From positions 127,171-191,170 of IMG/VR virus record IMGVR_UViG_3300028833_000001: DNA of 64,000 nucleotides; one strand, 5' to 3'. This document shows positions 6,914 to 60,131 of the stretch, one piece after another. Every line of letters begins with the position of its first letter. The first letter of the stretch is position 1. The notes below the pieces were generated by a model. The model searched no databases. It worked only from the letters and a program-made list of their open reading frames with translations, and was not told the origin of the DNA. This DNA comes from a virus (taxonomy: Duplodnaviria; Heunggongvirae; Uroviricota; Caudoviricetes). The translations under genes were made by a program, and so were the position numbers.

Positions 6914-7123
6914 ACAAATGATTTTATGTTAAACTTTAATTTAATATGTCAAAGAACTTTTTAATTGAGCAGCATAGCAGAGTCGAACTGCCGATTCAAC
7001 CTTGGAAGGGTTGCGTGTTACCACTACACTAATGCTGCTTGTACGCAAATGCGTACCCTACATTTCTGGTGCTTCCAGAGCCAAACCTTTTTAATTATAC
7101 TGATTTTTTTTCAAACAACCAAA

Positions 7124-38998: not shown

Positions 38999-39910
38999 CT
39001 ATTTGTTTTGTTCTTTAATAAAATTTTCTACAAAATCATGAAATGAATCAAATTTTTCAATTTCACATCCAAATTTAGTTGTTTTTGACAATTCATTAAG
39101 GTTGACATTGGTGTTATAAGGTGCAGCAATAAGCACTCCGTGTTCGGCTTTGCAGTTTTTAAAATTCCAATCATTGTCGTCAATAAAATAATCACAATCA
39201 ACTATTGATTTGTCTTTTGCAAAAACAATACTGTCATATTCAACACAATTTTTTTCGAGCCATTCCAGTGTTTGTTGTTTGTTTAAAGGCGTTTTTTGAT
39301 AGGTAACTATTACAATATCGCCGTATTCTTTAAGTTTTTTAATGTCTTCTGAAACATAATTGAATGGTTTTGCTTCAACAAACAATTCATGCGAATGGTC
39401 CTGAAAGAACCATTTACTTGAGGTTTGGCCAGTTTCCTCTTCTATCTTTGGGAACTCAATCTCTGTTTTATAGTTTGTAATAGTTGAAACATCTTTTGTG
39501 TCATTGAAATGCTCATTATAAAGCTTAACCATTTCTCCCAGATTATCTCTTAGTACGTTGTCAACATCAATAGCAAAAACCAATCGTTTTGTTTCGGCTT
39601 CTTGTTGTTTTAGCCATTCGTCTATTTCATCATCAACTCTTGCTTCAGTTAGCAGGAAAATATCGCGCAAGTTATTAAATTCATCAGATAAATCTCGGTG
39701 TAGTTTTTTTTCTGTATTTTTGAGGATTTGGTTATATTTTTCATACAAAACTCTTTCACCCCAAACGTATGTTTTCCATTCCTGTTGCGAAGAGTATTCT
39801 GTTATTCCGTTTTCAGTGATGCTTTTCATAACAGAACATACTTTATCAAGAACATCATTCATTCCATTATTTCTTAAAATTTTTCTAGCTTTGGCTCTTT
39901 GGTTATTCAT
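38999..39910 (-). CDS. HAD-superfamily 5'(3')-deoxyribonucleotidase-like protein
   Basis: HAD motif I (IDVDNVL) in the C-terminal half. The N-terminal ~120 aa are unknown. Confidence 0.45.
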   Translation of the reverse strand: MNNQRAKARKILRNNGMNDVLDKVCSVMKSITENGITEYSSQQEWKTYVWGERVLYEKYNQILKNTEKKLHRDLSDEFNNLRDIFLLTEARVDDEIDEWLKQQEAETKRLVFAIDVDNVLRDNLGEMVKLYNEHFNDTKDVSTITNYKTEIEFPKIEEETGQTSSKWFFQDHSHELFVEAKPFNYVSEDIKKLKEYGDIVIVTYQKTPLNKQQTLEWLEKNCVEYDSIVFAKDKSIVDCDYFIDDNDWNFKNCKAEHGVLIAAPYNTNVNLNELSKTTKFGCEIEKFDSFHDFVENFIKEQNK

Positions 39911-39931: not shown

Positions 39932-40138
39932 TTAACTATGTTTATTAACTATTTTTGCGACGATGTAAGGTAATAGGGATAAAAATATAATAAGCGCACT
40001 AAATAATATGAAACCAATCCATAATGGAGACAGAACCCAAATGTAACTCCACGCAATAACGCCAAAAATTTTTAAAACAATAAAAACTATTGTTAAAACT
40101 ATAATAAACATTGCTACTTTAATACTTGGATTTGACAT
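39932..40138 (-). CDS. small membrane protein
   Basis: 68 aa with two TM helices. Confidence 0.4.
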   Translation of the reverse strand: MSNPSIKVAMFIIVLTIVFIVLKIFGVIAWSYIWVLSPLWIGFILFSALIIFLSLLPYIVAKIVNKHS

Positions 40139-40194
40139 ATTTTATCAATTTTTATTTACGTTATTTTTTAATTGAAAATACGGTATGTGAATTA

Positions 40195-40539
40195 TTATGT
40201 AAATATTTTACCAATTAGTGAATAATTTGAATCATAAACTTCAATTATATCTGACTTTTCTCCAATTTCAAATATTTTTTTACACATTTTTTTACCGTTT
40301 TTTGTTTGAACTACAATATCATTGTTCACGACCTTACATATTAGAAATACACAATCAACATGATATTGATTTGGTAGCTCGTTATTTAACGATAAACATT
40401 TAACAATCCTTCCTCTTCTGAATAATTCCTTCCTGACTTTAAAATCATTAACTTCCGTATAATGACAACATAATATGAATGTAGCTAAAATAGATAATAC
40501 AAATAAAACTATCCAAATCGTAAACGCTTGCGTGGCCAT
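40195..40539 (-). CDS. membrane-anchored protein
   Basis: N-terminal TM helix. Confidence 0.4.
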   Translation of the reverse strand: MATQAFTIWIVLFVLSILATFILCCHYTEVNDFKVRKELFRRGRIVKCLSLNNELPNQYHVDCVFLICKVVNNDIVVQTKNGKKMCKKIFEIGEKSDIIEVYDSNYSLIGKIFT

Positions 40540-40565
40540 AATAATTGATTTTTTTCATTAAAACA

Positions 40566-41003
40566 TTACTTTCCAGTATGGCCAAATCCGCCAGTACCTC
40601 TTTCTGTTTTACTTAGTTCATCAACAACAACAAACTCCATAATTGGGTATGGCATTACTTGAATTTGTGCCACTCTATCACCAACGCTATATGGCTTTGG
40701 CATGTATTTATCATTGTCTTTAGTTGATTTATACTTAATAAGTAATTCTCCTCTATATCCGCTGTCTAGAATACCAACTGAGTTTGGTAGATAGCATATT
40801 GTTTTGGTGTTGCTTGAACGTGGATAAATTTTCAAACAATATCCTTCTGGTATTTCAAAGGCTAAACCAGTATGGTACACATGTAAATCGTTTTTAAGGT
40901 CATATTCATAACTGATTGCTGTTACATCACAACAAGCATCTCCATTTTTTGCGTATGATGGAATTACAGCATTTTCGTTAAGTTTTTTAATTCTAATTTT
41001 CAT
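40566..41003 (-). CDS. dut: dUTP diphosphatase
   Basis: Motifs AKNGDACCDV, RSS, GILDSGYRGEL and ERGTGGFGHTG (dUTPase motifs 1, 2, 3 and 5). Confidence 0.8.
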   Translation of the reverse strand: MKIRIKKLNENAVIPSYAKNGDACCDVTAISYEYDLKNDLHVYHTGLAFEIPEGYCLKIYPRSSNTKTICYLPNSVGILDSGYRGELLIKYKSTKDNDKYMPKPYSVGDRVAQIQVMPYPIMEFVVVDELSKTERGTGGFGHTGK

Positions 41004-41113
41004 ATTAATACAACATTTTATTGTTATAATACATTTTTTTTACCGCAAAACAAAATTGTTGCGCCATATAATATCTTATGAGACTATTTATGGTAGAATT
41101 AAAATAAATTAAT

Positions 41114-41452
41114 ATGGGTAAAACGAATAAAATAATTATATCAGAATCTAATTTACGCGATTTGGTTACTGAATGTTTTGAAAAATTATTAAAAGAAGTT
41201 ATTGGCTCTTATAACGGACACTTCGGAATGGACAACAAACACTCGATAGAAAGAGTTGCTGATGCTTTGTCTAAATTTGATGATGCTATGATATCTGATA
41301 CATACACTAATAATAATAGAATTGTAATTGAGTTTAAACCAAATTCAACACATATAAATCAAGTAATTGACATGATGAAAGAATATGGCTATAGATATTA
41401 CTCAATGAACAGTACAACATCTAAAACATTGGTTGTTTTCAAACGTAAATAA
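41114..41452 (+). CDS. hypothetical protein with the recurrent N-terminal motif
   Basis: Starts MGKTNKIIISESNLRDLVTECFEKLLKEV. Confidence 0.5.
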   Translation: MGKTNKIIISESNLRDLVTECFEKLLKEVIGSYNGHFGMDNKHSIERVADALSKFDDAMISDTYTNNNRIVIEFKPNSTHINQVIDMMKEYGYRYYSMNSTTSKTLVVFKRK

Positions 41453-41580
41453 CTTGCTATTGAAATAACCATCAACGACATACACAACTTAGTTTTAGGG
41501 GCTGTGACTGAAACAATCCGTCCATGATATAGACGACGATAGGACATTCATGTCGATAATAAAAATTTAATGATGTAAAG

Positions 41581-42408
41581 ATGAGTGTGTTTGAAAGTGA
41601 TGATAAAAAATTAATATCTCCAGAAGAAGCTAAAAAATTAGGGTTTGCGATACCTGATGAAAATCTTATCGGTTACGTTGACGGTGAATTTGTTATACCA
41701 ACAAATATAGGTGTTGGTTATAAAGTGTTTGAGCTGAAAGACGGTAAATTATATCCTCCAATGGTTAGAAACGCCAACAACTCTAACACCGAGATTGGTG
41801 TTTGGATACCAGCAAGTACACCTCCAGTTGTTGGCTATACAGCAAAAGAGCATAGACCTCAAGTAGCTGCAAAAGGTTCCACAAGCAAGACGTTAAGTTT
41901 TAGACCTGGTTGGCATCTTGGTAAATTACCAATAGCGTTACAATTTATAAAAAAACACAATAAAAAGCCTATGCTATATAAAGGACGGTTCGTTTGGCCA
42001 TCAAATTTAGTTTGGGCAAAATGCTATTATAGTAAAGACATTGATTATCAAGAAGCAGCTATGAGTTATGGAAAAACAAAAAATGGTGGATTTATTCATA
42101 GCAGAGCTGGTCTTCCAATGGTGCCGAAAAACGGAAGTTATGAGTATAGAACAAATCCAGACCCAAAAACAGAGGCTTGGGTTATTACTGGGGCCATGAA
42201 AATTGTTGATATTTTGTCTTTCGATGAAGTTGATAAAATTTTAACCGATAATGGTATTACGCCTCCAGTTGTAATGACAAACGATGAAATTAAAAAATAC
42301 AGGGAAAAATTAAAAGAATCACCTATTGAGATAGATGAAAATAAGATGAAGGAACTAGTACACGATGTGTTTAACAAACTTATTTTGGAAATATTAAATT
42401 CTAATTAA
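41581..42408 (+). CDS. hypothetical protein with the recurrent motif at its C-terminus
   Basis: Ends ...IEIDENKMKELVHDVFNKLILEILNSN. A terminator follows at 42446-42475. Confidence 0.5.
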   Translation: MSVFESDDKKLISPEEAKKLGFAIPDENLIGYVDGEFVIPTNIGVGYKVFELKDGKLYPPMVRNANNSNTEIGVWIPASTPPVVGYTAKEHRPQVAAKGSTSKTLSFRPGWHLGKLPIALQFIKKHNKKPMLYKGRFVWPSNLVWAKCYYSKDIDYQEAAMSYGKTKNGGFIHSRAGLPMVPKNGSYEYRTNPDPKTEAWVITGAMKIVDILSFDEVDKILTDNGITPPVVMTNDEIKKYREKLKESPIEIDENKMKELVHDVFNKLILEILNSN

Positions 42409-42478
42409 ATTTGTCAAAATAGTGGTGGTAAATAATGTTAAAAAAAATGGGCCCATGTTTTAGGGCCCATTTATTATT

Positions 42479-42985
42479 TTATTTTAATGAATCTCTAACT
42501 TTATCTAAAACTTTACCCAAAAGATTTTTGCCTTTCCATGTTGATTCGTCATCTGATGCCGTTTTAAAACTAACCCCTATGCCCCATATTTTATCGTATG
42601 GACTACCTTCGACAAAATGCTTATCAGCTATTGTTTCATCCATTAATTTTTCAAACAAGTCTCGGTTTTGGGTATATTTAAGGTAATTAGCATCAAACAT
42701 TATATTTTCTTTAACTTCATTCCATTTCTTATCATCGTAGTTTCTTACTAGTCTACCAAGTCTTTTAGCTTCTTTTGGGTTCGAACCATTTTCAATTATT
42801 TCGTGCGCAATATCAATGTCGTTAAAGTATAAGGCTTTTAGAAACATAAAATATTGTTCTGTATTATAAAACATATATTCAGTATTGTTTATTGTCGCAG
42901 TGAATTTTGACGGATACCAATTTGACGGCCATCCGAACCAGAAGAATATATGTTTATCAGTTACTCGTATGTTTTTATCGTTCAT
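42479..42985 (-). CDS. NADAR (YbiA/DUF1768) domain protein
   Basis: FFWFGWPSNWYPSKF...EYMFYNTEQYFMFLKALYFND...EAKRLGR...EGSPYDKIWGIGVS matches NADAR signatures. Confidence 0.7.
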   Translation of the reverse strand: MNDKNIRVTDKHIFFWFGWPSNWYPSKFTATINNTEYMFYNTEQYFMFLKALYFNDIDIAHEIIENGSNPKEAKRLGRLVRNYDDKKWNEVKENIMFDANYLKYTQNRDLFEKLMDETIADKHFVEGSPYDKIWGIGVSFKTASDDESTWKGKNLLGKVLDKVRDSLK

Positions 42986-43039
42986 ATAGTTTTTATATAT
43001 ATTTGTATATTATTATCATTTTTTACGATTAACGTGCAA

Positions 43040-44405
43040 GAAAGCCCACTGCTTTAGCTGTGGGATGAATTGCACTCTATTATAATATACATTTTTTTTG
43101 AAAAAACAAAACTTTTTTAAAAAACACACTATTTATAAGTACATGATACAGTACAGGACATATACAATCAGGCTGTTTCCGAACAGGGAGCAGGAACAGG
43201 AACTCAAAAACCTGTCCCTTGCAAGGAACACATTGTACAACATGCTTGTCGGAATCGAACAGAAAACCTACGAAGAGACCAGAAAAATAAAAACCGAGTT
43301 CGACCTCGACAGGGATATCACTGTGCTGCGAAAAGAACACCCGTTCCTGACCAAACTCAACTCCAAGGCGAGCCAAAGGGTCGCCAAGGAGGTGTATTCA
43401 GCCTATAAATCGTTCTTTAGCCTTGTCAAAAAGGACAATACAGCGAAGCCGCCTCAGCAGATAAAAGACGTGGATAGGTTCCATACTGTGGCATACAACC
43501 AGACTGGCTGGAAGTTTATCAGTGAGAACATCTTGAAACTGAACGGTTTAGTCGTGAACTACAAGGGAATCCCTGGCATGGACTACAAGTTCATGTCGAT
43601 TAAGGAAGTCAAGCTGAAACGTGTGAATGGCAAGTATCTGCTGGACTTGGGTGTGGCAAACAGTGTGGAGGAAAAACAAACAATAACCAATGAAAACAAG
43701 GTGCTTGCGATAGACCTCGGACTCAAGAACCTTTGCAACGGCGTGGACAACATAGGCTCAGTTGTAGTGTTACCAAACAAAGCCAGAAGAATAAACAGGT
43801 ACTTCAGGAAACAGATATCGGCTATACAGTCGAAGATGGACAAGCGCATCAAGGGCAGCAGCCGACACAGCAAGCTTAAAAAAACGAAAAGGAAACTGTA
43901 CAACAGAAGGAACGCACAAATAAAACAGACTCTGCATATCCAGAGCAAAAAACTAGTGGATATGAACTACAAGACGATTGTAGTTGGTGACTTGAGCGTG
44001 AAGAAGCTGATGGAGAAGGGGAGCAACAAGCTGACCAAGACTTCCAGAAGCTTCAGCGAATCATCTATAGCCACATTCATGGAATACCTTGCATACAAGT
44101 GCCAGAACAGTAACACGGAGCTGGTGACAATCAACGAGATGTGGACAACACAGCAGAACTGTCTGACAGGCAAGCTGTTCAAGGAGAAGGTCGGATTGTC
44201 CGACAGGACTGTCATGCTTTCGGATTCCATAGAGATAGACCGTGATTTGAACGCCGCAATCAACATAATGAAGCGGTACGAGCAGAATCACCTTGCGCTG
44301 CTGACAGCGCCGCTGGATGTTTCCAGTGTGGTCAACAGGCACAACCTGTTGACAGATACGTGTTCTTGAAAGAAGTCAAGAACCCCACGGTTTCAACCGT
44401 GGGAG
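43040..44405 (+). mobile_element. IS200/IS605-family TnpB-only (IS1341-like) insertion, with GC content above the surrounding DNA and subterminal hairpins at 43044-43065 and 44384-44403
   Basis: Right end: CCCACGGTT-TCA-ACCGTGGG immediately 3' of the tnpB stop. Left end: GCCCAC-N10-GTGGG. No tnpA is present. Confidence 0.7.
43143..44369 (+). CDS. tnpB: TnpB (OrfB_IS605) RNA-guided nuclease-like protein; the RuvC motifs are intact but the zinc-finger cysteines are lost
   Basis: MIQYRTYTIRLFPNREQ (OrfB N-terminus), DLGLKN (RuvC-I), DRDLNAAINIMK (RuvC-III). The CxxC..CxxC region reads QNCLTGK...LSDS. The start was taken at Met16 of the track ORF. Confidence 0.8.
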   Translation: MIQYRTYTIRLFPNREQEQELKNLSLARNTLYNMLVGIEQKTYEETRKIKTEFDLDRDITVLRKEHPFLTKLNSKASQRVAKEVYSAYKSFFSLVKKDNTAKPPQQIKDVDRFHTVAYNQTGWKFISENILKLNGLVVNYKGIPGMDYKFMSIKEVKLKRVNGKYLLDLGVANSVEEKQTITNENKVLAIDLGLKNLCNGVDNIGSVVVLPNKARRINRYFRKQISAIQSKMDKRIKGSSRHSKLKKTKRKLYNRRNAQIKQTLHIQSKKLVDMNYKTIVVGDLSVKKLMEKGSNKLTKTSRSFSESSIATFMEYLAYKCQNSNTELVTINEMWTTQQNCLTGKLFKEKVGLSDRTVMLSDSIEIDRDLNAAINIMKRYEQNHLALLTAPLDVSSVVNRHNLLTDTCS

Positions 44406-44443
44406 TATGTCAGTATTGTACATTATTTTTTTGTTTAATACAA

Positions 44444-44734
44444 CTATTTTGGGTATTGTAGTATATCATTAAATTTTGTATCAATAATAGTACATATATT
44501 AAATGGTACTATTGATATGCATTGCCCTCCAGCAGCCAATAGCATATTTTCATTGTCATTAAACGTATCTAATCTTTTTTGTTTTAACGATTCCGCAATA
44601 TTTGGATTGTCTAAACACTGCTTGGCGTATTTATCCCAATGTTCAGAGACATCTTCTTTGGTTTGTGGGTAAAAAAACCAATCTTTAAATGCATCAGAAT
44701 CTTGATTTAATTTAATTTTTACAAATTTATACAT
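44444..44734 (-). CDS. hypothetical protein
   Basis: 96-aa ORF. Confidence 0.4.
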   Translation of the reverse strand: MYKFVKIKLNQDSDAFKDWFFYPQTKEDVSEHWDKYAKQCLDNPNIAESLKQKRLDTFNDNENMLLAAGGQCISIVPFNICTIIDTKFNDILQYPK

Positions 44735-44807
44735 ATGTTTTATTATAAAAATAATAAAATATAGAAAATAGTAAACTAAAAGCTATTTATGTAAAATTAC
44801 TTTAATT

Positions 44808-45644
44808 ATGGGATTTATTAATAGTATAATTCAATTTTTCCGTGATTTGTTTTGTAACGAAAAAACAAACACAGAGACTGTAGTCACAATAAACGAGACT
44901 GATTCTAAGGTTTCTGACGATACTACTATTAAAGTGGAAAACAATGTTGAAACTGACGAAAAAGATAACACTATCAACGTTGAAAGTGCTGATGAACCAC
45001 AAGATTTGGGGCTTAAACAATTTCACGTACTGATTGATAACGGCCACGGTAAAAATACTAGTGGAAAGGGTAGCCCGTATTCGTTGGCAGGTGTTGAACC
45101 AAAGTTGTCATATAAAGAATATGCATGGGCAAGAGAAATAGCTGGTATGATTGAGGCTGAATTAAGTAAGCACGGAATAAACGCAGAAAGAATAGTTCCA
45201 GAAGAAACGGATATTACACTAACAGAAAGGGTCAGAAGGGTTAATACTAAGTGTAATTTGTACGGCGTTAAAAACACCATTTTAATATCAATACACAGTA
45301 ACGCTGCTGGCAACGGATTAAAGTGGATGACTGGACGCGGATGGAGTGCTTATACAAGTAAAGGCCAAACTTCTGCCGACATTCTTTGTGAATGTCTATA
45401 TAAAGAAGCAGAAAAAAACTTTAAGGGTATGAAAATCAGAAAAGACACGACTGATGGCGATAGCGATATGGAAGAAAATTTCACGATGTTAAAGAAAACA
45501 TCTTGCCCAGCAGTTTTAACAGAAAACTTCTTTCATGATAACATAGAGGACGTTGAATTTATTACATCTGATATCGGCAAAAATGCAGTTGTTAAAACTC
45601 ATGTTGATGGTATAATAGAGTATTTTAAACAAAAAATAAAATAA
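44808..45644 (+). CDS. N-acetylmuramoyl-L-alanine amidase (Amidase_3), a putative endolysin
   Basis: FHVLIDNGHG, ISIHSNAAGNG and LTENFFHDN, with a ~70-aa acidic N-terminal extension. A terminator follows at 45652-45677. Confidence 0.75.
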   Translation: MGFINSIIQFFRDLFCNEKTNTETVVTINETDSKVSDDTTIKVENNVETDEKDNTINVESADEPQDLGLKQFHVLIDNGHGKNTSGKGSPYSLAGVEPKLSYKEYAWAREIAGMIEAELSKHGINAERIVPEETDITLTERVRRVNTKCNLYGVKNTILISIHSNAAGNGLKWMTGRGWSAYTSKGQTSADILCECLYKEAEKNFKGMKIRKDTTDGDSDMEENFTMLKKTSCPAVLTENFFHDNIEDVEFITSDIGKNAVVKTHVDGIIEYFKQKIK

Positions 45645-45651
45645 TATTAAA

Positions 45652-45677
45652 GGCCGCTGTTTAGCGGCCTTTTTTTG
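45652..45677. terminator. intrinsic terminator
   Basis: AGGCCGCT-GTTT-AGCGGCCT + T6. Confidence 0.7.
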
Positions 45678-45691
45678 TTTAGCACAGTTGA

Positions 45692-46153
45692 TTACTTCTT
45701 TTTGTTTTTAGTCACTTTAATTGTTGTTTCTTCTGGTTCGCAATCAGTTTCCATTACATTTGTTTTCTTTGCTGTAATTTTAAGTTTTCCATCTTTACAT
45801 AGTTTAGCTTCTAGTGTTGAAGCATCAGCATCGTTTGGCAATGTGGTTGAAAAGTATGTTGAATTTTTGCAACTATGATTGTCATCTGACCACTCATAAT
45901 CACTTGAAATCTCAACAACATTCATTCCATCATTTTCGTCTACGTTGACTTTGATGTTTGAATCTTTGGCATTTGGCCCAAAGGCTGTTTCCATAACGTA
46001 TTCTCCATCAATTTCCTGGAATCCATCAATCTTGGAGGATGGTACATTCAAATTATCATACAAATCTGAAAATTTTAAACTTTTAAAGTCAACATTGCAA
46101 ATGTCATCAATAAGCTTATCAATAAAGCTTGATTTTTTTGTTAAATTACTCAT
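45692..46153 (-). CDS. Hsp20/alpha-crystallin-like small heat-shock protein
   Basis: ACD-like core (FQEIDGEYVMETAFGP...IKVNVDENDGMNVVEI...AKLCKDGKLKITAKK). Confidence 0.45.
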   Translation of the reverse strand: MSNLTKKSSFIDKLIDDICNVDFKSLKFSDLYDNLNVPSSKIDGFQEIDGEYVMETAFGPNAKDSNIKVNVDENDGMNVVEISSDYEWSDDNHSCKNSTYFSTTLPNDADASTLEAKLCKDGKLKITAKKTNVMETDCEPEETTIKVTKNKKK

Positions 46154-46179
46154 AGTACTTTAATTTTATTAAAAATTTA

Positions 46180-46398
46180 TTAAGATAGTCTTCTACTAAT
46201 ACGACCTTTTGTTAAATCGTATGGCGACATTTCAATAAGGACCTCATCGCCTTCTATTACTTTAATTCTATTTTTTCTCATTTTGCCACTTAAAACACAT
46301 AATATTGTGTGGCCATTTTCTAGTTCCACTTTAAACATTGTGTTTGGTAGTGCTTCTATAACTGTTCCTTCAATTTCTATTGGTTCTATTTTTGCCAT
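46180..46398 (-). CDS. infA: translation initiation factor IF-1
   Basis: [67 protein letters not shown] is collinear with bacterial IF-1 (S1-like OB fold). Confidence 0.9.
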
Positions 46399-46399
46399 A

Positions 46400-47524
46400 T
46401 TAAATTATACTTTTTTTTATTGATTCATAAGAATCGTTGTCATTATAAAATATGTCAGACAAGGACATAGGCTTATTTGATTTATCATAACCTAACTCTT
46501 CAAGTAGTTTATTGGTTTTTTCAATACATAAATTTTTAAATTCATATTTTGATACCAATCTACCCCTTCTTAATAATGCTGGGTCAATGTTTTTAATATC
46601 ATCGTTAAACGTACAAATAAACTTAATTCCAAGGTCATCAGATAAAATACCATCAGTCATGTTTAATAGTAGTGATACTGATGATGCGCTATTGTTTTGT
46701 CTTCTATCTTGAATTACGTTTTCACAATCCTCAACAACTATAATGTGATTGTTTAATGATGATAAAAAACTACCGAATGATGGCTCACTAAACGAAGAAA
46801 CTAAGTTAGATGGTACATATACAAATTTTTTTGTTGGATTAACATGTATTAAATGCTTAATATATGTACTTTTACCAGTACCTTTATCTCCGTGTAAAAT
46901 AACTAATCCGTTTGCGTCTTTAGTTTCGATGAAATTTTTTATTTTTTCGTCTTCTTTTTTAAAATCATCGTTATAGATTTTATCTATATCAAAATTTTCT
47001 GGGCATTTAATTTTACCTTTTGTTAAATAATACGAGCCGCTTGACATTGCAAGTCGCCAATATGTGTCAGTCTGAGCATTTTCGTCACTTATTAATTGTT
47101 TAATTGAGTCTGCTAGCTCTTGAGCTTCTTTAATATGGTTGTTATCGAATAAAATATAAGATTCTGTTGCTAATCTTTCTATTCTACCATAAATATTTAA
47201 TCCGTTTATGATAAAATTAATAGAATAGTTATCGTCTTGTTGCGTATCAGTTTCACATATCTTCTTTGTGATATATGGTATAATTTCTAAATCATATTGT
47301 TCATTGTAATTTTTAATCAAAAGTTCAATAACGGCTTGTGTATTAATGTACATATCTCCAACCCTTTCGTCATATTCAAATAGGATACATCCAGGAAAAC
47401 ACTTATGCCTTGTATAAAATAAATTTTGTAGTGATAATCCATCGATGTTGCCATATAATTTGGCATCATCTTCTGACATACTAATATTAGCTTTATTATG
47501 AAGTAAATTTTCCATTTTTTCCAT
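46400..47524 (-). CDS. classical AAA ATPase
   Basis: Walker A ([11 protein letters not shown]), Walker B (IIVVEDCE) and SRH-like [10 protein letters not shown]. Confidence 0.65.
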
Positions 47525-47569
47525 ATCATTTTTATTAATAATACAATTAAATCACGAAAAAAACAAAAT

Positions 47570-47782
47570 TTAAATTACTCTATTCGAATTGCATTTCAAT
47601 GGTTTGCCACCAAATTTCAATGACCACACATTTTGTGACATATCTGATGAATAATTACTATCAAATAACTTATATATTGAAGCAAAATCATAAGAAACGT
47701 CACCACCGAATGTAATATAGTCATAATAATCAAACACCGAATCAGTGTCAGAAGACATTTTTCTAAATCTAGTTAACCCCAT
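47570..47782 (-). CDS. hypothetical small protein
   Basis: 70-aa ORF. Confidence 0.35.
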   Translation of the reverse strand: MGLTRFRKMSSDTDSVFDYYDYITFGGDVSYDFASIYKLFDSNYSSDMSQNVWSLKFGGKPLKCNSNRVI

Positions 47783-49365
47783 TAATTTTGTATTTCTTGT
47801 TTTATTTTTTTTAATTCTGTATATAGTGAAATAGAGTCAACCCCATACTGCTTTGGACTAAATTCTTTTTCTGAAATAAAGTTTAACGACAATTTAGGTC
47901 TAGTAGACATTACATATAGCAAATGTTGCTCTTCTTCAATTTCCCAATCTAGTTCTGCAAATCTACTTGGTATTAACGATGGGCATAGAATAAAAACATT
48001 ATCAGCTTCCATGCCCTTAGCCCTATGAATAGTCGAAAGCATCACTCCGTCAGAAGTTTCATCTTTAAACACATCTTTAATAAACAATTCCAATTCATAT
48101 CTATTTGTTACTGTTTTAGGCAACGATTCCATGGTTCTTATGGTGTCTAATAACGAAGCAAGTCTTTTATCGTTTGAGGCTTCTTGTTCGTTTTCACCAT
48201 TTATTTCTTGGATTTGTGACCACATATCAATAAGTACGTGTTTCATTTCGAGTATCATTCCTTCTACATCGTCGCTCTCTGTACAATCAGTTGCTAATAT
48301 AATATTTCTACCAAGTTCCTCGCTTATAAAATATGCTTTCTGACCTATTGAGATTAATTGTCTATAAAGTCTCATTAGCGGGGCTATGTTTCTGCATAAA
48401 ACCATATCGTTGTTTTTAATTGCAGTCAATTGAACATCAAAATTAACGGAGCCGTCTATTGCGTCATCTTTTGCATGTATATTATTATTTGTATATTGTT
48501 TTGCATATTCTATAATTTTTTTACCACATCTGTAGTTTGTTGTTAACGGAAGTTCTACGGCATCACGTCTAAATGTTGTTGGGTCTTGTAAATGCTCGAA
48601 CGAATCGGTATCACTACCGCACCATGAATTAATTGTTTGGTCTCTATCGCCAAAAGCGAAAAGCCTGGTATTTCTCTTAAAACACCTACTAATAATATCT
48701 TGTTGTGCAATAGATGCGTCTTGAGCTTCGTCAAGCATTATAACATCAGCTAAATATTTTTTTGTAAAGTATCCATACTCAGAAGGAAACCATAGTAAAT
48801 CTTGATAATCAACCACATCTATAACGGTTTCACCCCATTTTAACACTTTTGCAACGCACTCAAACTCGTTGGCTATACTAGTTATGCCGTATTTTTTTGT
48901 TGCTAGTTTTCTAATTTCTTTTTCTGATTGTTTAAGATTATGCCTAGCCTTGTTGATTAAGTCAAATACAGTTGCTTTATAAGTGGATTTTGAGTTTTTA
49001 TCTAACGAGATGTATTCTTCACCGCCTAATTCGGTTATATTTGCATTTACGTATTTTCTATATTTATCGTCATCTATTGTAGGCTCTAAGTCAAAGTGTT
49101 CGGTAAACATTCTCCATGCTAGTCCGTGTAATGTATATATTTTTATGTTATCACTATTACCTATTCTTTGCTTAAGTGTATCTCTCGTAGACCTGTTATG
49201 AGCTAAAATAAGTACTTTTTTTGCTGTGTCAATTCTATTTGCACATTCTACTAATGTAGTAGTTTTGCCAGCACCAGCAACTGCTTGTACTATAAGGTTT
49301 AGCACCCCCTTTTCGGCTTGTTCAAAAATATCTTTTTGCTCTTGGCTATATTCAAAATTTGACAT
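47782..49365 (-). CDS. UvrD/Rep/PcrA-like SF1 DNA helicase
   Basis: Motif I AVAGAGKTTTL, motif II VIMLDEAQD and downstream SF1 motifs. Confidence 0.75.
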   Translation of the reverse strand: MSNFEYSQEQKDIFEQAEKGVLNLIVQAVAGAGKTTTLVECANRIDTAKKVLILAHNRSTRDTLKQRIGNSDNIKIYTLHGLAWRMFTEHFDLEPTIDDDKYRKYVNANITELGGEEYISLDKNSKSTYKATVFDLINKARHNLKQSEKEIRKLATKKYGITSIANEFECVAKVLKWGETVIDVVDYQDLLWFPSEYGYFTKKYLADVIMLDEAQDASIAQQDIISRCFKRNTRLFAFGDRDQTINSWCGSDTDSFEHLQDPTTFRRDAVELPLTTNYRCGKKIIEYAKQYTNNNIHAKDDAIDGSVNFDVQLTAIKNNDMVLCRNIAPLMRLYRQLISIGQKAYFISEELGRNIILATDCTESDDVEGMILEMKHVLIDMWSQIQEINGENEQEASNDKRLASLLDTIRTMESLPKTVTNRYELELFIKDVFKDETSDGVMLSTIHRAKGMEADNVFILCPSLIPSRFAELDWEIEEEQHLLYVMSTRPKLSLNFISEKEFSPKQYGVDSISLYTELKKIKQEIQN

Positions 49366-49501
49366 AATATATATTCGTATTAATATTATTAATTATAATA
49401 ATATTATTTTTTTGTGTTTTTTCAAAATTAATTAATATTTATTTCTCGTAAAATGATTGCGGGGCGGAGTGCCGCGTTTCGTTTTAGGGCACCGCAGCTG
49501 C

Positions 49502-49535
49502 TTCGTTTTCAAGATGGTCATCTGGCCATCTTTTT
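49502..49535. terminator. intrinsic terminator (AGATGG-loop-CCATCT + T9), preceded by a GC-rich element at 49450-49500
   Basis: gatggtcatctggccatcttttttttt. Confidence 0.5.
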
Positions 49536-49571
49536 TTTTGTATATCCTATTTATTGAAAAATTAGTATTAT

Positions 49572-50318
49572 ATGGTTCCAACAGAAGAATGGGTAGAAGA
49601 AAATTTTTTTAAATACAATAGAATATATTTTAACGGAGAACTTCCAACCCCAAGAATTATAGTTTCTGAAGATTGCACTTATAATGGCGAAGATTGTTTT
49701 GGATATTACAGCCTATTTGGGTGCAGATTCGATAAAATCAATAGAAAAATTATTAGTTTACGAAATAATGGTACATTATGTATTTCGTCAAAATATGACA
49801 GACCAGAAAAAGATATAATAGGAACATTGTTGCACGAAATGATACATGTATATGTTAACCTTTGTTTATTAGTGTATCCTAAAAATCCTCATGGTAAAGA
49901 ATTTACAAAAATGGCAAATAAAATAAACGCAGATGGGTGGGATATATCAGAGTCAAATGAGATGGGTGCTGGATTTGTTGCTGGTTCTGGAGGGAGTGAT
50001 GGCTCTGGCAGTCAACCAGTTTTCGGAATATTATGTCTTATTTACAAACCAACTGGTACTGATTATAAATATTGGTTTTGCAGGGCTGAGCCAAATCAAT
50101 TTGATGCAATAAGACATACAGCGTCAACGTGGGGTTCAGATATACAAGTACATTTTTACCAGACAAAATCATCGAAATTGATGTCACTTGAGGCTAACGT
50201 AGCAACACTTCCTGGTTTTGGTTCAATGAACGTTAATGATGCTATACGTAATTTGGCTAACTTTTTAGGTGAATCTATTGACGTTTTTTCAACTCATAAT
50301 TTACAGAAAATAAACTAA
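49572..50318 (+). CDS. SprT-like zinc metalloprotease domain protein
   Basis: N-terminus FFKYNRIYFNGELPTP...LLHEMIHVYV (SprT_N with HExxH) plus a Gly/Ser-rich linker. Confidence 0.55.
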   Translation: MVPTEEWVEENFFKYNRIYFNGELPTPRIIVSEDCTYNGEDCFGYYSLFGCRFDKINRKIISLRNNGTLCISSKYDRPEKDIIGTLLHEMIHVYVNLCLLVYPKNPHGKEFTKMANKINADGWDISESNEMGAGFVAGSGGSDGSGSQPVFGILCLIYKPTGTDYKYWFCRAEPNQFDAIRHTASTWGSDIQVHFYQTKSSKLMSLEANVATLPGFGSMNVNDAIRNLANFLGESIDVFSTHNLQKIN

Positions 50319-50686
50319 TGAACATAACTCCAATCATTAATATTAGGGCATTATTAATTTGGGAATACATGTCTGAAAAGAAAATATCCGATATTTCAAA
50401 TTCAGATGATGATATCCAAAACATGAAGTATTCCTCATTTATCTCTGGAGGGGCTTCAATTACGAAGTCGGGATTTAACATACTTTATGGTTCATATGAT
50501 TTCAGAAATAACTTTGATACTGTGTTTTTGTCTTCTTTTAATAATTTTGAATTATACGGTAAACATTTATTTACTACATATACTGTAAAAGATTTGATTT
50601 TTTTGCTAATGGAAAAATACAAAATAGATTATGAAACTATAGTGAATAAGATGACTTTCCAAGAAATAAACATGTTGCTAAAATAA
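50318..50686 (+). CDS. hypothetical protein
   Basis: 122-aa ORF followed by a terminator at 50687-50720. Confidence 0.4.
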   Translation: MNITPIINIRALLIWEYMSEKKISDISNSDDDIQNMKYSSFISGGASITKSGFNILYGSYDFRNNFDTVFLSSFNNFELYGKHLFTTYTVKDLIFLLMEKYKIDYETIVNKMTFQEINMLLK

Positions 50687-50693
50687 AAGGGCC

Positions 50694-51287
50694 TTATTTT
50701 GAGGCCCTTTCTTTTAATTTATTCTTTAATACCAACGCATAGTCCTTAAACGGCTTTTGTTGCTTGTTCCCTCTGTATAACCACTTTTTAAAAATTGGTA
50801 TTGTAACTTTTGTTATTGCCATAAATCCATGCCAATTTTTACTATAATTTGATAAGTATGCTTTTTTTGCCTCTTCTTTTGATAAAAATCCCAACATTAC
50901 TTTGCTTTCATCGAAACTTCCGTCTTTTCCTTTTTGGTCAACAACAAAAACATGTTCAAAGTCATCGACATGATTACCAATGAAAACGTCTACAGCGTCA
51001 CCGTCTTTTCCGTTTCCGCTTGTATTTTTGAAATATCCATAATGGTTCTTCATTGTTGTATGGCCTTCTTTTCCGTTTTGGTCTTTCCATTTTCTAATAC
51101 TACCCTTTGGGTTTTCTATGGAAATACCCATGCCTTTTATGTATATATGCCCATGTTTGTAGTTGTTTGCGCTGATTTGCAATTCTGTTGGGTTTTGATT
51201 TGCATCATACGCCCTTTCTTCAATATCTGACTGTGATATTTCGTTTAAAAGATTTTTAAACTGAGTCTGAGTTAATATAATATCCAT
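50694..51287 (-). CDS. hypothetical protein with the recurrent N-terminal motif
   Basis: Starts MDIILTQTQFKNLLNEISQ. Confidence 0.5.
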   Translation of the reverse strand: MDIILTQTQFKNLLNEISQSDIEERAYDANQNPTELQISANNYKHGHIYIKGMGISIENPKGSIRKWKDQNGKEGHTTMKNHYGYFKNTSGNGKDGDAVDVFIGNHVDDFEHVFVVDQKGKDGSFDESKVMLGFLSKEEAKKAYLSNYSKNWHGFMAITKVTIPIFKKWLYRGNKQQKPFKDYALVLKNKLKERASK

Positions 51288-51298
51288 AACGTATTTTA

Positions 51299-51730
51299 TT
51301 ATAAATGATTAATTGGCAACATACCAAGTGGTGATATTTTATCATCAAACCAATAATTTATTATTTTATTCATGAAAAGTTGCCTTTCATTCTTATCTGA
51401 AAACATGTTTTGGAATCGTGTAATAACTTGGTCCTCTAAATCGTCTAAATACATGTTTCGTAAAATGTTTCCGCTATCTTTGTCCAATAAACCAACCACT
51501 TTTACCTTTTCTTGCATGCCGTTTGGGCCAATTCTAGTCATTGTAGCCCTTTCAAAATTATTGTCCAAAAATTTTTTAACAATTTTTACTTTGTTTGGGT
51601 CTATACAATACGGTTTGTTGGTGGATTTCATACCAGGATTTTGCGGGCCTGGTTCAGAATATATTTCTTTTCCAGATAAGTTTTCCATCAACAATTTGAA
51701 TTGCTTTTCATTTAAAATAATGTTTCTCAT
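51299..51730 (-). CDS. hypothetical protein with the recurrent N-terminal motif
   Basis: Starts MRNIILNEKQFKLLMENL. Confidence 0.5.
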   Translation of the reverse strand: MRNIILNEKQFKLLMENLSGKEIYSEPGPQNPGMKSTNKPYCIDPNKVKIVKKFLDNNFERATMTRIGPNGMQEKVKVVGLLDKDSGNILRNMYLDDLEDQVITRFQNMFSDKNERQLFMNKIINYWFDDKISPLGMLPINHL

Positions 51731-51812
51731 ATGTATATACGTTTATATCAATTAATAAATAGTTTATAGGTCTTGTTTTAAATAAAAATGACCGCTTGTT
51801 GCGGTCATTTGT

Positions 51813-54362
51813 CTATCTAACAGTAACACATTCATCGTTTTTATTGATTTCTGCATAAAATACATGCTCGTTGTCATATGTGTTTTCTATTAGTAAATCA
51901 GTTATCTGATTTTCAATAATATCCTGAATTGCCCTTATAATTGGCCTTGCACCATATTCTTTGTCATTTTTAATATATTCTAAAATATAATCTATTACGT
52001 CATCTGATATTGAAAGACTATAACCTATATTGTTTAGACGTTCTTTTAATTTATTAATTTCCAAATTAATAATTCGTTTTAAATCATCATCACTTAATTG
52101 ATTGAAATATACTATATTATCGATTCTGTTTAAGAATTCTGGCGGAAATTTCGACTTCAAATGTTTTATTAGTATTTTTTTCGTATTTTGGTCTTTGTCT
52201 TCATTAAATCCTATTCCGTTTCCAAATTCGCCAGCACTTTTTACCCCTATATTTGATGTGAATATAACTATAACGTTTTTAAAATCAATTTTTTGGCCAG
52301 AATTATCAGTTAAAAAGCCTTCATCTAATACCTGCAAAAATACATTATATATCTCTTTATCTGCTTTTTCTATTTCATCAAGTAACAATATGCAATGTTT
52401 TTTATTTTTAATGGCCTCAGTCAATTGACCACCTTCTTCATATCCAACATATCCTGGGTTTGAGCCTATTAATTTGTTTACCGCTACTTTATCTGAAAAT
52501 TCAGACATATCAAATCTAACAAGAGACTTTTCATTTCCGAATAATTCTTTTGCTAACTTTTTGGCCAAAAGAGTCTTACCAACTCCAGATTTTCCAATCA
52601 TCATTGCACTGAACATGCAACCATTTTTTGTTAGACCGACCCTATTTCTCTTTAACGCTTTGCACACTGTGTCAATTGCTTCGTCTTGCCCAATTATTTC
52701 ACTTTTTAGTCTATCGTTAATTGTTGCCAATTTTTGTTTATCATCAGAAGTTAGATTTGTAATTGGTATTCCAGTTTTTTTTGATACTATTGTAAGTATA
52801 TCATTAACCCCTATAGTCGACGGATTGTTCTTTTTGTCTTCCATCATCTTTTCTTTAGCTTTGTTAAATGAAACTTTTAGCCAAGACAAATATTCTTCTT
52901 TTTTATTACTTTCTTCGTAATCCCCTTTCTTTTTACTGTTGGCAATTTCAGATTCTGTATACTTAATTTTATTTCTGAGGATTCTAATATTTTTTGGTTC
53001 ATTACCTGTTCCAATATAAGCACCTGTTTCATCAAGTATGTCTATGGCTGAATCTGGTAAATTTCTTTCTGTTATATACTTGTTGGCTAGTTTTACACAT
53101 GATTTAATGGCGTCATCTGTATATTTCACACCGTGAAAATCTTCATATGATTTTCTAATACCAAACATGATGTCAATGGTTTCAGAAACTGTTGTTGCTT
53201 CAACTATTATTTTTTGAAAGCGTCTTGCTAATGATGGGTCCTTATCAAACGTCTTTCTATACGACATAAAATCTGATGTCCCTATAACCTGTAATTCCCC
53301 AGTTTCCAATGACCTGGATAACATTGCGGATATTTCATAATCGTTTTTTCCTTTATCAGCTAAAATCGCCCCAATATTGTCCATAAACAAAATATATTTG
53401 TTATTGGCCTTTATTTCGTCTAATATTCCTTTTACCCTCTCTTCAAACATGCCTCTAAGTGTGGTCCCAGCCATAAGCGCTGTCATGTCCAACGATACTA
53501 TTTCTTTGTCTGATAAGAAACCAGGTACATCGCCATTTATTATTTTAACTGCTAAATATTCTCCAATAGCTGTTTTTCCTACTCCCTCACCACCTAATAA
53601 TATTGCATTGTTTTTGTTTTTTCGGCCTAAAATTCGTATAATTTCTTCCATTTCCTTTTCTCTTCCGATTAATGGCGATATTTTGCCTTCTTCTGCTAAT
53701 CTATTGAGATTAGTACAATAAGACTCTATGTATGAACCAGAATTGCCTTTTTTTGTTGGTGCCATGTTTTGAGTAACTGTTGCTGTTATTTTAACAGGAT
53801 TTATTTTTTCATTTTGAACTTTGTTTTGTTGGCCTAATTTTTCCTCTGTGATTTCTGACTGTAATTGTGACCTTAAATTAGCGTATGTAATCCCGCCAGA
53901 TTTTGAAAATACACTCCTTATTGTGTTGTTTGGTGAATCATCTTTTAGTATTGCCAGAAAAATTAATTCTGTGGTTATTTTGTCTGATGTTAAACTTATA
54001 GCCTCTTCATTCGCAGTAACTATTGCGTTAAAAAAATTTTCACTCATTAAAGGCTCACGATTTGGCTTTATAGCATTTAATGATTTTGATGATAGCTTTT
54101 GATACCATGTATCATAAATTGAATCTAACGAGCTTGACATCAATTGATTATTAAGTCGTTTGTACAATAGATTATTTTTATCTGAAATACACGCAAATAT
54201 AAAATAATCTAAATCAATAACCAACGTTGGAAATTCTTTAATCAAGTCATCCTTGCACATGTTCAAAATTCTTAAACACTCTTCTGAAAAGCTTAAAGTG
54301 TTCACATGTTTTGTGCTTTTAACTATTTTTATTTCGTCCATAATATTAATGTGTAATTTCAT
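51813..54362 (-). CDS. ClpA/ClpC-like Hsp100 ATPase with two AAA+ modules
   Basis: D1: AILLGGEGVGKTAIGEYLAVKIINGDVP and SLARRFQKI. D2: MIGKSGVGKTLLAKKLA, RFDMSEF and GSNPGYVGYEEGGQLTEAIKNKKHCILLLDEIEKA, collinear with ClpA/ClpB. Confidence 0.8.
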   Translation of the reverse strand: MKLHINIMDEIKIVKSTKHVNTLSFSEECLRILNMCKDDLIKEFPTLVIDLDYFIFACISDKNNLLYKRLNNQLMSSSLDSIYDTWYQKLSSKSLNAIKPNREPLMSENFFNAIVTANEEAISLTSDKITTELIFLAILKDDSPNNTIRSVFSKSGGITYANLRSQLQSEITEEKLGQQNKVQNEKINPVKITATVTQNMAPTKKGNSGSYIESYCTNLNRLAEEGKISPLIGREKEMEEIIRILGRKNKNNAILLGGEGVGKTAIGEYLAVKIINGDVPGFLSDKEIVSLDMTALMAGTTLRGMFEERVKGILDEIKANNKYILFMDNIGAILADKGKNDYEISAMLSRSLETGELQVIGTSDFMSYRKTFDKDPSLARRFQKIIVEATTVSETIDIMFGIRKSYEDFHGVKYTDDAIKSCVKLANKYITERNLPDSAIDILDETGAYIGTGNEPKNIRILRNKIKYTESEIANSKKKGDYEESNKKEEYLSWLKVSFNKAKEKMMEDKKNNPSTIGVNDILTIVSKKTGIPITNLTSDDKQKLATINDRLKSEIIGQDEAIDTVCKALKRNRVGLTKNGCMFSAMMIGKSGVGKTLLAKKLAKELFGNEKSLVRFDMSEFSDKVAVNKLIGSNPGYVGYEEGGQLTEAIKNKKHCILLLDEIEKADKEIYNVFLQVLDEGFLTDNSGQKIDFKNVIVIFTSNIGVKSAGEFGNGIGFNEDKDQNTKKILIKHLKSKFPPEFLNRIDNIVYFNQLSDDDLKRIINLEINKLKERLNNIGYSLSISDDVIDYILEYIKNDKEYGARPIIRAIQDIIENQITDLLIENTYDNEHVFYAEINKNDECVTVR

Positions 54363-54459
54363 AAGTTATTATATCAATAATATAAAAAAAAATATTAAAT
54401 TACAACACACAACACTTGATATTACTGGTAGTTTTAGATTATCTTTTAATAAAAAAATT

Positions 54460-55185
54460 ATGATAATTAAAAAAATTTACGACGAACAAACAAGAACACA
54501 GAAAATATGGTATGATTCATCAATGCTTCTATATTCTGAAATGGTTGAATCTGAAACAGAAAATAACGGTGATTTATACATAACGTTCAAAAACGGGACA
54601 ACTTATAAGTATAATAACGTTTCACTTGAAGATTATGTATTATTAATTGGCGCTTCAACAGACGCTTCGCATGGTAAAACATTAAACAAAATCATAAAAC
54701 AAAAATATGAATGTTCAAAAATAGGAGATGCAGATGTTGAAAAAATTAATAAAGAATTACTAGAAGTTATCGATAAATCATCTGATAAAGCTAAAACATA
54801 TTTTATTTCTGGACATAGAAATATAACGGATATTGAATTTGAAAATTATTACCACGCAATGATTAATTATGCGTTAAGCGAGACAAACGACGCTAAATTT
54901 GTCGTAGGCGATTATTACGGAGTGGATATAATGGCACAAAATTATTTAATAGATGTATTAGGAATAGAGCCAGAACGAATAACAGTGTATCATATGTTTG
55001 ATTCCCCAAGAAACTTTAACCCAAAAATAACTAAATTTGTTGGTGGATTTAAAACAGATGATGATAGAGATGAAGCAATGACAAATGCTTCATTTGATGA
55101 TATAGCAATGGTCAGAGATTGTAATGAATTATCTGGCACTGCTAAAAATATTTTAAGACGCCATATGTTTGGCAATTTTGTTTAA
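54460..55185 (+). CDS. KTSC-domain protein fused to a Rossmann-like (SLOG/DprA-like) domain
   Basis: IWYDSSMLLYSEMVE...LYITFKNGTTYKYNNVSLEDYVLLIGASTDASHG matches the KTSC signature. The start was reset downstream of the clpA-like overlap. Confidence 0.4.
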   Translation: MIIKKIYDEQTRTQKIWYDSSMLLYSEMVESETENNGDLYITFKNGTTYKYNNVSLEDYVLLIGASTDASHGKTLNKIIKQKYECSKIGDADVEKINKELLEVIDKSSDKAKTYFISGHRNITDIEFENYYHAMINYALSETNDAKFVVGDYYGVDIMAQNYLIDVLGIEPERITVYHMFDSPRNFNPKITKFVGGFKTDDDRDEAMTNASFDDIAMVRDCNELSGTAKNILRRHMFGNFV

Positions 55186-55209
55186 AAATACTATTTATTG
55201 AATAAATAA

Positions 55210-57036
<1,827 letters not shown>

Positions 57037-57072
57037 ATAAAAGAAAATAATAATATTTAAAAAGATAATAAA

Positions 57073-57261
57073 ATGGACAAGTTTAATACTTATGATTACA
57101 TTGAAGGTACTGAATTTGAAGGCTTAATGCCTGCTGTACTCAAAAAATTACCAACCATTGGTGCTACAGAGGAAAAAAAGAACATTAATTTTTTTGAAAA
57201 TTTCCAACGTGGGAATGATTATCTAGAAGTTGTTGATACGCAAAAAATGTACGACGAGTAA
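57073..57261 (+). CDS. small protein sharing an N-terminal motif with the fibre protein
   Basis: YDYIEGTEFEGLMPAVLKK compares with [20 protein letters not shown] terminator follows at 57284-57314. Confidence 0.4.
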   Translation: MDKFNTYDYIEGTEFEGLMPAVLKKLPTIGATEEKKNINFFENFQRGNDYLEVVDTQKMYDE

Positions 57262-57379
57262 TTTTTAGTTAATAGCGATAATATAGCCAGGCAACATTTG
57301 TCTGGCTTTTTTAATTACTTTTTTGTAAAAAATTCATACTATTTATTTTGTATAAAACATTTTAATCAATAAGTATTTT

Positions 57380-60046: not shown

Positions 60047-60131
60047 AGATATATTTAATAATATTTTCTATTATTCGACCTATTTATATGAAAAAACGAA
60101 AATAATTATTACGAAAAAAATATTAAACAAT

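Follow-up and report, generated by a model that had tools for sequence, protein, structure and literature searches.

Can a phage supply its own translation initiation factor IF-1 to the cell that it infects, and what would such a factor do there? The question is raised by a 72-codon gene in a stretch of 64,000 nucleotides (positions 127,171 to 191,170 of record IMGVR_UViG_3300028833_000001), the whole of which is here called the window. An original prediction, made from the letters of the window, had placed a phage-encoded IF-1 at positions 46180–46398; these coordinates and the 72-residue product are exact, and the gene lies on the minus strand, which the prediction had left unstated, starting with ATG at 46398–46396 and ending with TAA at 46182–46180. 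We find that the gene is an intact infA orthologue that is selectively maintained, and the reading that we favour, with moderate confidence, is that it encodes a working IF-1 that would bind the A site of the host 30S subunit and supplement the host factor during infection. The two features at the centre of the analysis are as follows.

46180–46398, minus strand: coding sequence of IF-1 (infA homologue), 72 amino acids, stop codon included; called from its open reading frame (ORF), TIGR00008, PF01176, structure matches, an AlphaFold2 model and the ratio of non-synonymous to synonymous substitution rates (dN/dS)
46399–46428, minus strand: translation initiation region of the IF-1 gene, read directly from the upstream string atgaatcaataaaaaaaagtataatttaatATG

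The gene product is IF-1

The product was recognized by the infA equivalog model TIGR00008 with 101.3 bits (E-value 2.1e-29, cutoff 61.15), its residues 5–70 aligning with positions 3–68 of the 69 in the profile, and by Pfam PF01176 with 94.8 bits (2.4e-27, cutoff 30.2), in which case the profile was covered from end to end (1–64 of 64). Compared with 12 solved IF-1 sequences, residues 1–70 were collinear and free of gaps, at E-values from 1e-16 to 3e-27. These profile and gap-free matches bear out the claim that the product is collinear with bacterial InfA, and both of the motifs cited for that claim are present, at residues 17–30 and at residues 37–45, the latter reading SGKMRKNRI. Non-IF-1 proteins of the S1 or cold-shock-domain kind had been named as the closest homologues that would speak against the assignment; the closest homologues found were all IF-1. 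The archaeal and eukaryotic IF1A models scored below their cutoffs (TIGR00523, 23 bits versus 102.9; NF003084, 21.2 versus 91), as did RsgA_N (PF16745, 23.6 bits versus 27), and membership in aIF1A/eIF1A or in the N-terminal oligonucleotide-binding (OB) domain family of RsgA was rejected on these scores. Both of those groups share the fold superfamily, and Foldseek ranks them lower than IF-1.

An AlphaFold2 model, built from an input alignment of 28 sequences, had a mean predicted local distance difference test score of 91.9 and showed a five-stranded OB barrel in the order beta1-beta2-beta3-short helix-beta4-beta5, with strands at residues 7–17, 21–26, 31–36, 52–57 and 64–70 and the helix at 38–42. 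When this model was searched against the PDB with Foldseek, the top 13 matches were all IF-1, with template modelling (TM) scores of 0.77–0.92; superposition with 30S-bound Escherichia coli IF1 (9fco_I) gave a TM score of 0.92 and a root mean square deviation of 1.1 Å. The protein thus has the same 72-residue length and OB topology as bacterial IF-1, as represented by E. coli IF1 (PDB 1AH9 and 9FCO chain I) and by Thermus thermophilus IF1 on the 30S subunit (1HR0), while its identity to bacterial sequences is 60–69% for named species representatives of GTDB and up to about 73% for unnamed proteins from metagenomes that fall outside the phage clade described below. Residues 1–70 also matched the PHROG family phrog_30201 (4.8e-28), a phage family without a functional label, so that IF-1-like proteins are already a recognized phage family.

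The gene is under purifying selection and appears to be old

At least 11 related IF-1 variants with 75–100% identity were found. In a neighbour-joining tree with 100 bootstraps, ten proteins at 81–100% identity constitute what we call the window clade (97% bootstrap for the six members included in the tree), which the 75% relative, P0011, joins at 56%. Deep nodes were supported by at most 18% of bootstraps, most by 0–4%, and the phage IF-1 genes form no single resolved group. Pairwise comparisons of the window gene with four relatives gave dN/dS values of 0.06–0.15 at dS values of 0.8–1.8. The gene has a GC content of 32%, and of 19% at third codon positions (GC3), to be compared with 33.7% for the window and 45–51% for rumen bacterial infA; its composition matches that of the phage, which makes the capture old. 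Judged by these sequence data, the gene appears to be an old, functional resident of its lineage.

A scan of 185,579 GTDB species representatives, biased by the peptide patterns used for it, found no homologue at 70% identity or higher, and the best representatives, at 60–69%, were scattered over Clostridia, Gammaproteobacteria, Bacteroidales, Saccharibacteria and Bacillaceae. In the phylogeny, a kind of analysis that had been proposed for recognizing a host-derived origin, the window clade came out well supported, and no bacterial donor could be named from deep nodes of this kind.

Residues that contact the 30S subunit are largely retained

To compare the protein with IF-1 of known ribosome contacts, we used a residue list taken from a study covering Clostridioides difficile and T. 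thermophilus IF1 (PMC10913371) and from a review (PMC4611024); C. difficile IF1 aligns with the window protein position for position. In C. difficile IF1, nuclear magnetic resonance and modelling place K39 and M42 at the 530 loop and R41 and R46 at the flipped A1492/A1493, with the beta1-beta2 loop at helix 44 and with H35, Y60, R64 and R66 towards S12; H30, H35 and W69 are among the residues perturbed upon 30S binding (PMC10913371). The C-terminal Arg69 of E. coli IF1, in mature numbering, is essential for 30S binding according to the review (PMC4611024).

The window protein retains N19, H30, K39, R41, Y60, R66 and R70, the last being the counterpart of E. coli Arg69, and it has Lys at positions 42, 46 and 64, as do many bacteria. 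Among 66 distinct bacterial IF-1 sequences, 17 positions were invariant, and all 17 are kept here. The A-site contact residues are accordingly either retained or conservatively replaced, with the exception of positions 35 (Val) and 69 (Arg). These two belong to a set of residues that are conserved in the window clade and found in fewer than 10% of bacteria, namely P6, V35, R44, V47, I48, E49 and R69; the bacterial states are His at position 35 (in 56 of the 66), Tyr or Phe at 44, Pro at 49 and invariably an aromatic residue at 69. E52, a position that is Lys or Arg in bacteria, and L54 are usual within the window clade. Relative to bacterial IF-1, the protein is therefore distinguished by H35V, Y44R, P49E, K52E and Y/F69R and by a neutral net charge.

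The gene lies in a phage-like genome

The original prediction took the gene to be phage-encoded, which is supported by indirect evidence. A 361,445-bp contig, longer than the 200 kb by which huge phages are defined, encodes an identical IF-1 protein, and relatives were found on contigs of 309 kb and 172–175 kb, from ruminant gut metagenomes. The genes rpmJ, rpsM or map lay within 3 kb of infA at 58 of 80 bacterial loci and at none of 26 IMG/VR loci or 14 window-clade loci, and they are absent throughout the 64-kb window; the gene thus stands outside the typical map-infA-rpmJ-rpsM cluster, as expected for a virus-borne copy. The window has about 83% coding density in the standard code, consisting mainly of short ORFs without a family, and that code fits, with TAA used as stop in 72, TAG in 8 and TGA in 6 of 86 ORFs. 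It contains no rRNA, and Rfam gave no match beyond tRNA; one tRNA, found by ARAGORN, is the only RNA gene that either search detected. The following genes of the window bear on its viral nature.

6967–7038, minus strand: tRNA-Gly (anticodon UCC)
55222–57036, plus strand: collagen-repeat tail-fibre-like protein
57380–60046, plus strand: 888-residue protein
60036–61910, plus strand: protein of the 592–624-residue size class

The three large plus-strand genes, recognized by protein matches, probably form a virion or host-recognition module. For the 888-residue protein the best tblastn matches were Lak megaphages of Prevotella (38–39% identity) together with other huge phages, and its C-terminal 260 residues match Lak, Maribacter and Flavobacterium phages and phrog_36119, while the 592–624-residue protein is common to the window and to the two IMG/VR phage loci L003 and L004 discussed below. 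Megablast of positions 40000–60000 of the window gave no match among 50,697 phage records, so that none of these records is a close sequenced relative. With the assignment resting on neighbours, relatives and contig size, we regard the evidence that the window is a phage genome as strong but indirect.

IF-1 is embedded in a conserved block of genes

On the minus strand, IF-1 is the fourth gene of a block with minimal gaps, which is listed below in order of transcription together with the hairpin that follows it and a conserved neighbour.

47782–49365, minus strand: UvrD/Rep-type superfamily 1 helicase, 527 amino acids (PF00580, PF13361; phrog_1967, DNA helicase, 4.5e-70), first in the block
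47570–47782, minus strand: small ORF of 70 amino acids between the helicase and AAA+ ATPase genes; relatives have an ORF of 69–90 amino acids at the same position
46400–47524, minus strand: AAA+ ATPase, 374 amino acids, classic AAA domain at residues 208–329 and an N-terminal part without assignment (PF00004, 37.9 bits; phrog_14322), directly upstream of IF-1
45692–46153, minus strand: HSP20/alpha-crystallin-like small heat-shock protein (sHSP), 153 amino acids (PF00011, 30.0 bits, cutoff 20.8), 26 nt downstream of IF-1
45649–45672, no strand assigned: GC-rich 10-bp hairpin AAAGGCCGCT-GTTT-AGCGGCCTTT from a scan for terminator-like elements, lying where the HSP20 and amidase genes converge
51813–54362, minus strand: ClpB/Hsp104-type two-ring AAA+ chaperone, 849 amino acids (PF07724, PF17871, PF10431; phrog_4871, 3.4e-196), about 5.4 kb from IF-1

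The block is putatively co-transcribed, and the hairpin, of which the T-tail is clear on the plus strand only, is likely to mark the end of the operon. The ATG of IF-1 follows 1 nt past the TAA of the ATPase gene (46402–46400), a spacing that suggests translational coupling; the corresponding gap is −1 to 11 nt in four relatives (L029, L033, L037 and L119), and the gap between IF-1 and HSP20 is 22–28 nt across the clade loci. Gene order was identical in five of five fetched variants (the window protein, P0003, P0007, P0008 and P0011, having 75–100% IF-1 identity), running from ClpB through the pyrophosphatase and SprT genes to UvrD, the small ORF, AAA+ ATPase, IF-1, HSP20 and the convergent amidase; for the identical protein, the contigs fetched were 6.5 kb and 4.3 kb long. 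A scan for sigma-70-type promoters was uninformative (42 found, 33 expected), being of a kind that does not cover promoters of Bacteroidia or phages.

At 34–40% identity, tblastn matched the AAA+ ATPase to ATPases from the jumbo phages XacN1, PA5oct and MIJ3 (labelled 'AAA+ ATPase and BCS1 domain'), and a sequence search of the PDB gave no match for either the ATPase or the HSP20-like protein. The 70-residue ORF had no Pfam or PADLOC match. With PADLOC there was likewise no match for IF-1 or HSP20 and only P-loop-level similarity for the ATPase (20.5 bits); an anti-phage defence assignment for the cassette, which PADLOC does not give, was therefore discarded. The helicase matched Gabija GajB models with up to 106 bits and has no GajA-like partner adjacent to it, the match probably reflecting generic similarity within the UvrD family.

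The same phage carries a full-length ClpB/Hsp104-type disaggregase and the HSP20-like sHSP. In cells, ClpB and small heat-shock proteins form a functional pair, and the co-occurrence suggests a phage-borne system for protein disaggregation.

Start sites follow a Bacteroidia pattern

The initiation region of the IF-1 gene lacks a Shine–Dalgarno (SD) motif, having instead a run of A from −20 to −13 and an A at −3. The same holds for the window at large, where an AGGA, GGAG or GAGG core occurs at −20 to −4 in 2 of 85 genes, against 5.0 ± 2.3 at random positions, and where the frequency of A upstream of the 85 ORFs peaks at −13 (76%), −12 (73%), −6 (61%) and −3 (55%). In Flavobacterium johnsoniae and further Bacteroidia, where ribosomes disregard SD sequences, A at precisely these four positions is a positive determinant of initiation (PMC6847099). 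The window ORFs also show a strong preference for T at −1 (76%), which we could not match to published work.

That the start-site context is devoid of SD motifs had been correctly noticed in the original prediction, which called it consistent with manipulation of host translation initiation by the phage, as suggested by its IF-1. To our knowledge, IF-1 plays no part in SD recognition, and with the Bacteroidia signature present the SD-less starts are most simply a property of the host and not a strategy driven by IF-1. The signature points to a host among the Bacteroidia, which would probably be a member such as Prevotella, in keeping with the similarity to Lak phages and with the rumen and ruminant gut samples in which the window lineage was found.

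IF-1 genes of other phages

An IF-1 homologue was present in 35 of the 50,697 phage records; 15 of these are Lak megaphages, several more are records of 219–595 kb, and some are short or unannotated. IMG/VR contained at least 587 stretches encoding IF-1 relatives; among the best 80, 79 were without cellular context, and 24 of these 79 were on contigs of at least 200 kb. Phage IF-1 is thus uncommon, with very large genomes over-represented among its carriers, which agrees with the statement in the original prediction that virus-encoded IF-1 is rare and found mainly in very large phages. Unannotated GenBank 'phage' records with IF-1 matches (H2, H23 and H25–H27) are those named Staphylococcus SA 1306 Kay and Enterococcus Efs 1-1-1, together with Listeria LM contigs of 1.5–4.4 kb; there IF-1 looks host-like and may be host contamination.

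The presence of a 'prokaryotic initiation factor-1' in Lak megaphages was reported by Devoto et al. in 2019 (PMC6784885), and in 2020 Al-Shayeb et al. (PMC7162821) named IF-1 as one of the translation genes that huge phages carry, both in silico. The window resembles Lak in having a phage-borne infA homologue, a very large genome, an animal gut as its source and a probable Bacteroidia host. It differs in that the two IF-1 proteins are only 64% identical and were placed apart in the tree (with deep nodes of at most 18% bootstrap), that no neighbours within 10 kb and no similarity at the DNA level are shared, that the standard code fits the window whereas Lak recodes TAG (PMC6784885), and that the cassette of AAA+ ATPase, IF-1 and sHSP is specific to the window lineage.

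Two IMG/VR loci, L003 (356 kb) and L004 (211 kb), have IF-1 proteins that are 63–66% identical to that of the window and share with it, within 10 kb, ClpB and proteins of 888, 592 and 143 residues; in L003, an ORF 9 kb from IF-1 has 48% identity to the ClpB of the window. Their IF-1 proteins also have the motif C-[VF]-L-S-G-K in common with that of the window (residues 34–39), although what adjoins their IF-1 genes is a head-maturation protease gene, together with one for a scaffold-like acidic protein, rather than genes for an AAA+ ATPase and sHSP. The idea that all IF-1 genes of huge phages go back to one origin, prompted by the shared C-[VF]-L (residues 34–36), was rejected, as the tree does not support it and the signature occurs also in some bacteria. 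The head-maturation protease of L003 (8655–9899, minus strand) is 414 residues long, compared with 260 in L004, and its match to phrog_207 is split into two parts, pointing to an insertion within the gene, perhaps an intein.

Other genes of the window

In addition to an N-acetylmuramoyl-L-alanine amidase, the window encodes the following accessory functions.

4767–5645, minus strand: sigma-70-family factor with regions 2 and 4 (phrog_351, 6e-35)
31572–32420, minus strand: SPFH/Band 7 protein
38999–39910, minus strand: NT5C-type 5'-nucleotidase
40566–41003, minus strand: dUTPase
42479–42985, minus strand: NADAR-domain protein (154 bits), also matching the PADLOC candidate PDC-M42C
43098–44369, plus strand: TnpB of the IS605/IS200 family (OrfB_IS605 and a Cas12f1-like TNB domain), between a 96-residue ORF and the NADAR gene
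49572–50318, plus strand: protein with a SprT-like metalloprotease domain
50694–51287, minus strand: inorganic pyrophosphatase of the InPase family

NADAR enzymes reverse ADP-ribosylation of nucleic acids, and a counter-defence role is possible for the NADAR protein. TnpB is also present in the loci L001 and L002 and is absent at that position in L029 and L037, by which it looks like a recent insertion in a sub-lineage; L033 has no NADAR gene there.

What the phage IF-1 may do

According to the reading that we favour, the phage IF-1 would bind in the A site of the host's 30S subunits and act jointly with host IF2 and host IF3 to form the 30S initiation complex; the host IF-1 would thereby be supplemented or replaced, and initiation capacity would be sustained through a long, protein-intensive infection. 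Ribosome binding and benefit to the phage are what we infer here, from the identity of the protein, the conserved contact residues and the selection acting upon the gene. Several observations weigh against this reading. The clade-conserved H35V, Y/F44R, P49E, K52E and aromatic-69-to-Arg changes are rare in bacterial IF-1, and the net charge is 0, compared with +2 in E. coli IF1 and +3 in an IF-1 of Prevotellaceae; as 30S binding perturbs residues 35 and 69 of C. difficile IF1, the former of which faces S12, binding to the 30S subunit may be altered and not simply preserved. Furthermore, neither a capsid, portal nor terminase gene was found in the 64-kb window, the host was called solely from the start-site signature and a distant similarity to Lak, and our search of the literature turned up no experimental work on a phage-encoded IF-1. 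Some of the same residues lend themselves to another explanation, which corresponds to the manipulation suggested in the original prediction, that the variant vies with the host factor for the 30S subunit in order to favour phage mRNAs or alter start-site fidelity, since H35V, Y44R, V47, I48, P49E, K52E and Y/F69R lie at or close to the S12-facing surface and the loop between the helix and beta4, and since interception of initiation by phage IF1, IF3, S1 and S21 has been proposed for huge phages (PMC7162821). This we hold to be rather unlikely, for the phage start sites carry the host-type Bacteroidia signature and offer no visible phage-specific mRNA feature to select, and V35 and R44 turn up sporadically in genuine bacterial IF-1 proteins, such as some from Atopobiaceae and Alphaproteobacteria.

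The position of IF-1 between the AAA+ ATPase and HSP20-like genes, conserved and with ClpB 5.4 kb away, could also mean that the protein is not an initiation factor but an RNA chaperone or antiterminator acting off the ribosome, or part of a stress-proteostasis module with the ATPase, sHSP and ClpB. IF1 of E. coli has RNA-chaperone and antitermination activity and can replace cold-shock proteins. Nonetheless, conservation in the window protein runs along the residues that touch the 30S subunit and along SGKMRKN, the loop specific to IF-1, the score exceeds the equivalog cutoff, and the IF-1 genes of L003, L004 and Lak-like phages have no chaperone neighbours, making the association lineage-specific; we thus consider an off-ribosome role to be improbable. 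It is less probable still that the window should be a bacterial chromosome, large plasmid or other element with a cellular infA, as could be argued from the missing virion genes, from cellular-type genes such as those for ClpB, the sigma factor, dUTPase and TnpB, and from the fact that the window lineage itself was not recovered in the IMG/VR search. Such an origin would be difficult to reconcile with the lack of the ribosomal-protein context seen at 58 of 80 bacterial loci, with the lack of any homologue at 70% or more in GTDB, with the content of one tRNA and zero rRNA, with ORFs that mostly have no family and otherwise find their best matches in Lak, jumbo and huge phages, or with the head-maturation protease carried by the relatives that share neighbours with the window. 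Phages do take up host genes sporadically, and their IF-1 genes do not form one clade, but a recently captured passenger gene without function for the phage is the least credible explanation of all, being contradicted by the selection and synteny data: dN/dS is low where synonymous change is near saturation, gene and position are kept across lineages down to 75% identity, and the composition is phage-like with regards to GC3.

Significance for huge phages

IF-1 in huge phages was known from the reports of 2019 and 2020, so that the present finding extends known biology and does not change it; what is new is the lineage, the conserved cassette of AAA+ ATPase, IF-1 and sHSP, and the derived surface residues. 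On a highly speculative note, the derived IF-1 (S12-facing H35V and Y/F69R, with a back face made more acidic by P49E and K52E) might, together with the coupled ATPase and the sHSP, constitute a phage-specific module that remodels, reactivates or monopolizes host ribosomes. We think this improbable; if it were true, the module could act, for example, in slow-growing rumen Bacteroidia, and IF-1 would be more than a spare housekeeping factor.

Virus-encoded translation factors blur the boundary between virus and cell and indicate which steps in the host limit phage reproduction. The locus described here adds to them a selectively maintained IF-1 from a hitherto undescribed lineage of uncultivated huge tailed phages of the rumen, in a conserved and unusual partnership with an AAA+ ATPase and an sHSP. 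It also provides a compact test case, in the form of a 72-residue protein on the SD-independent ribosomes of Bacteroidia, for distinguishing between a supplement to host initiation and a changed selection of start sites.

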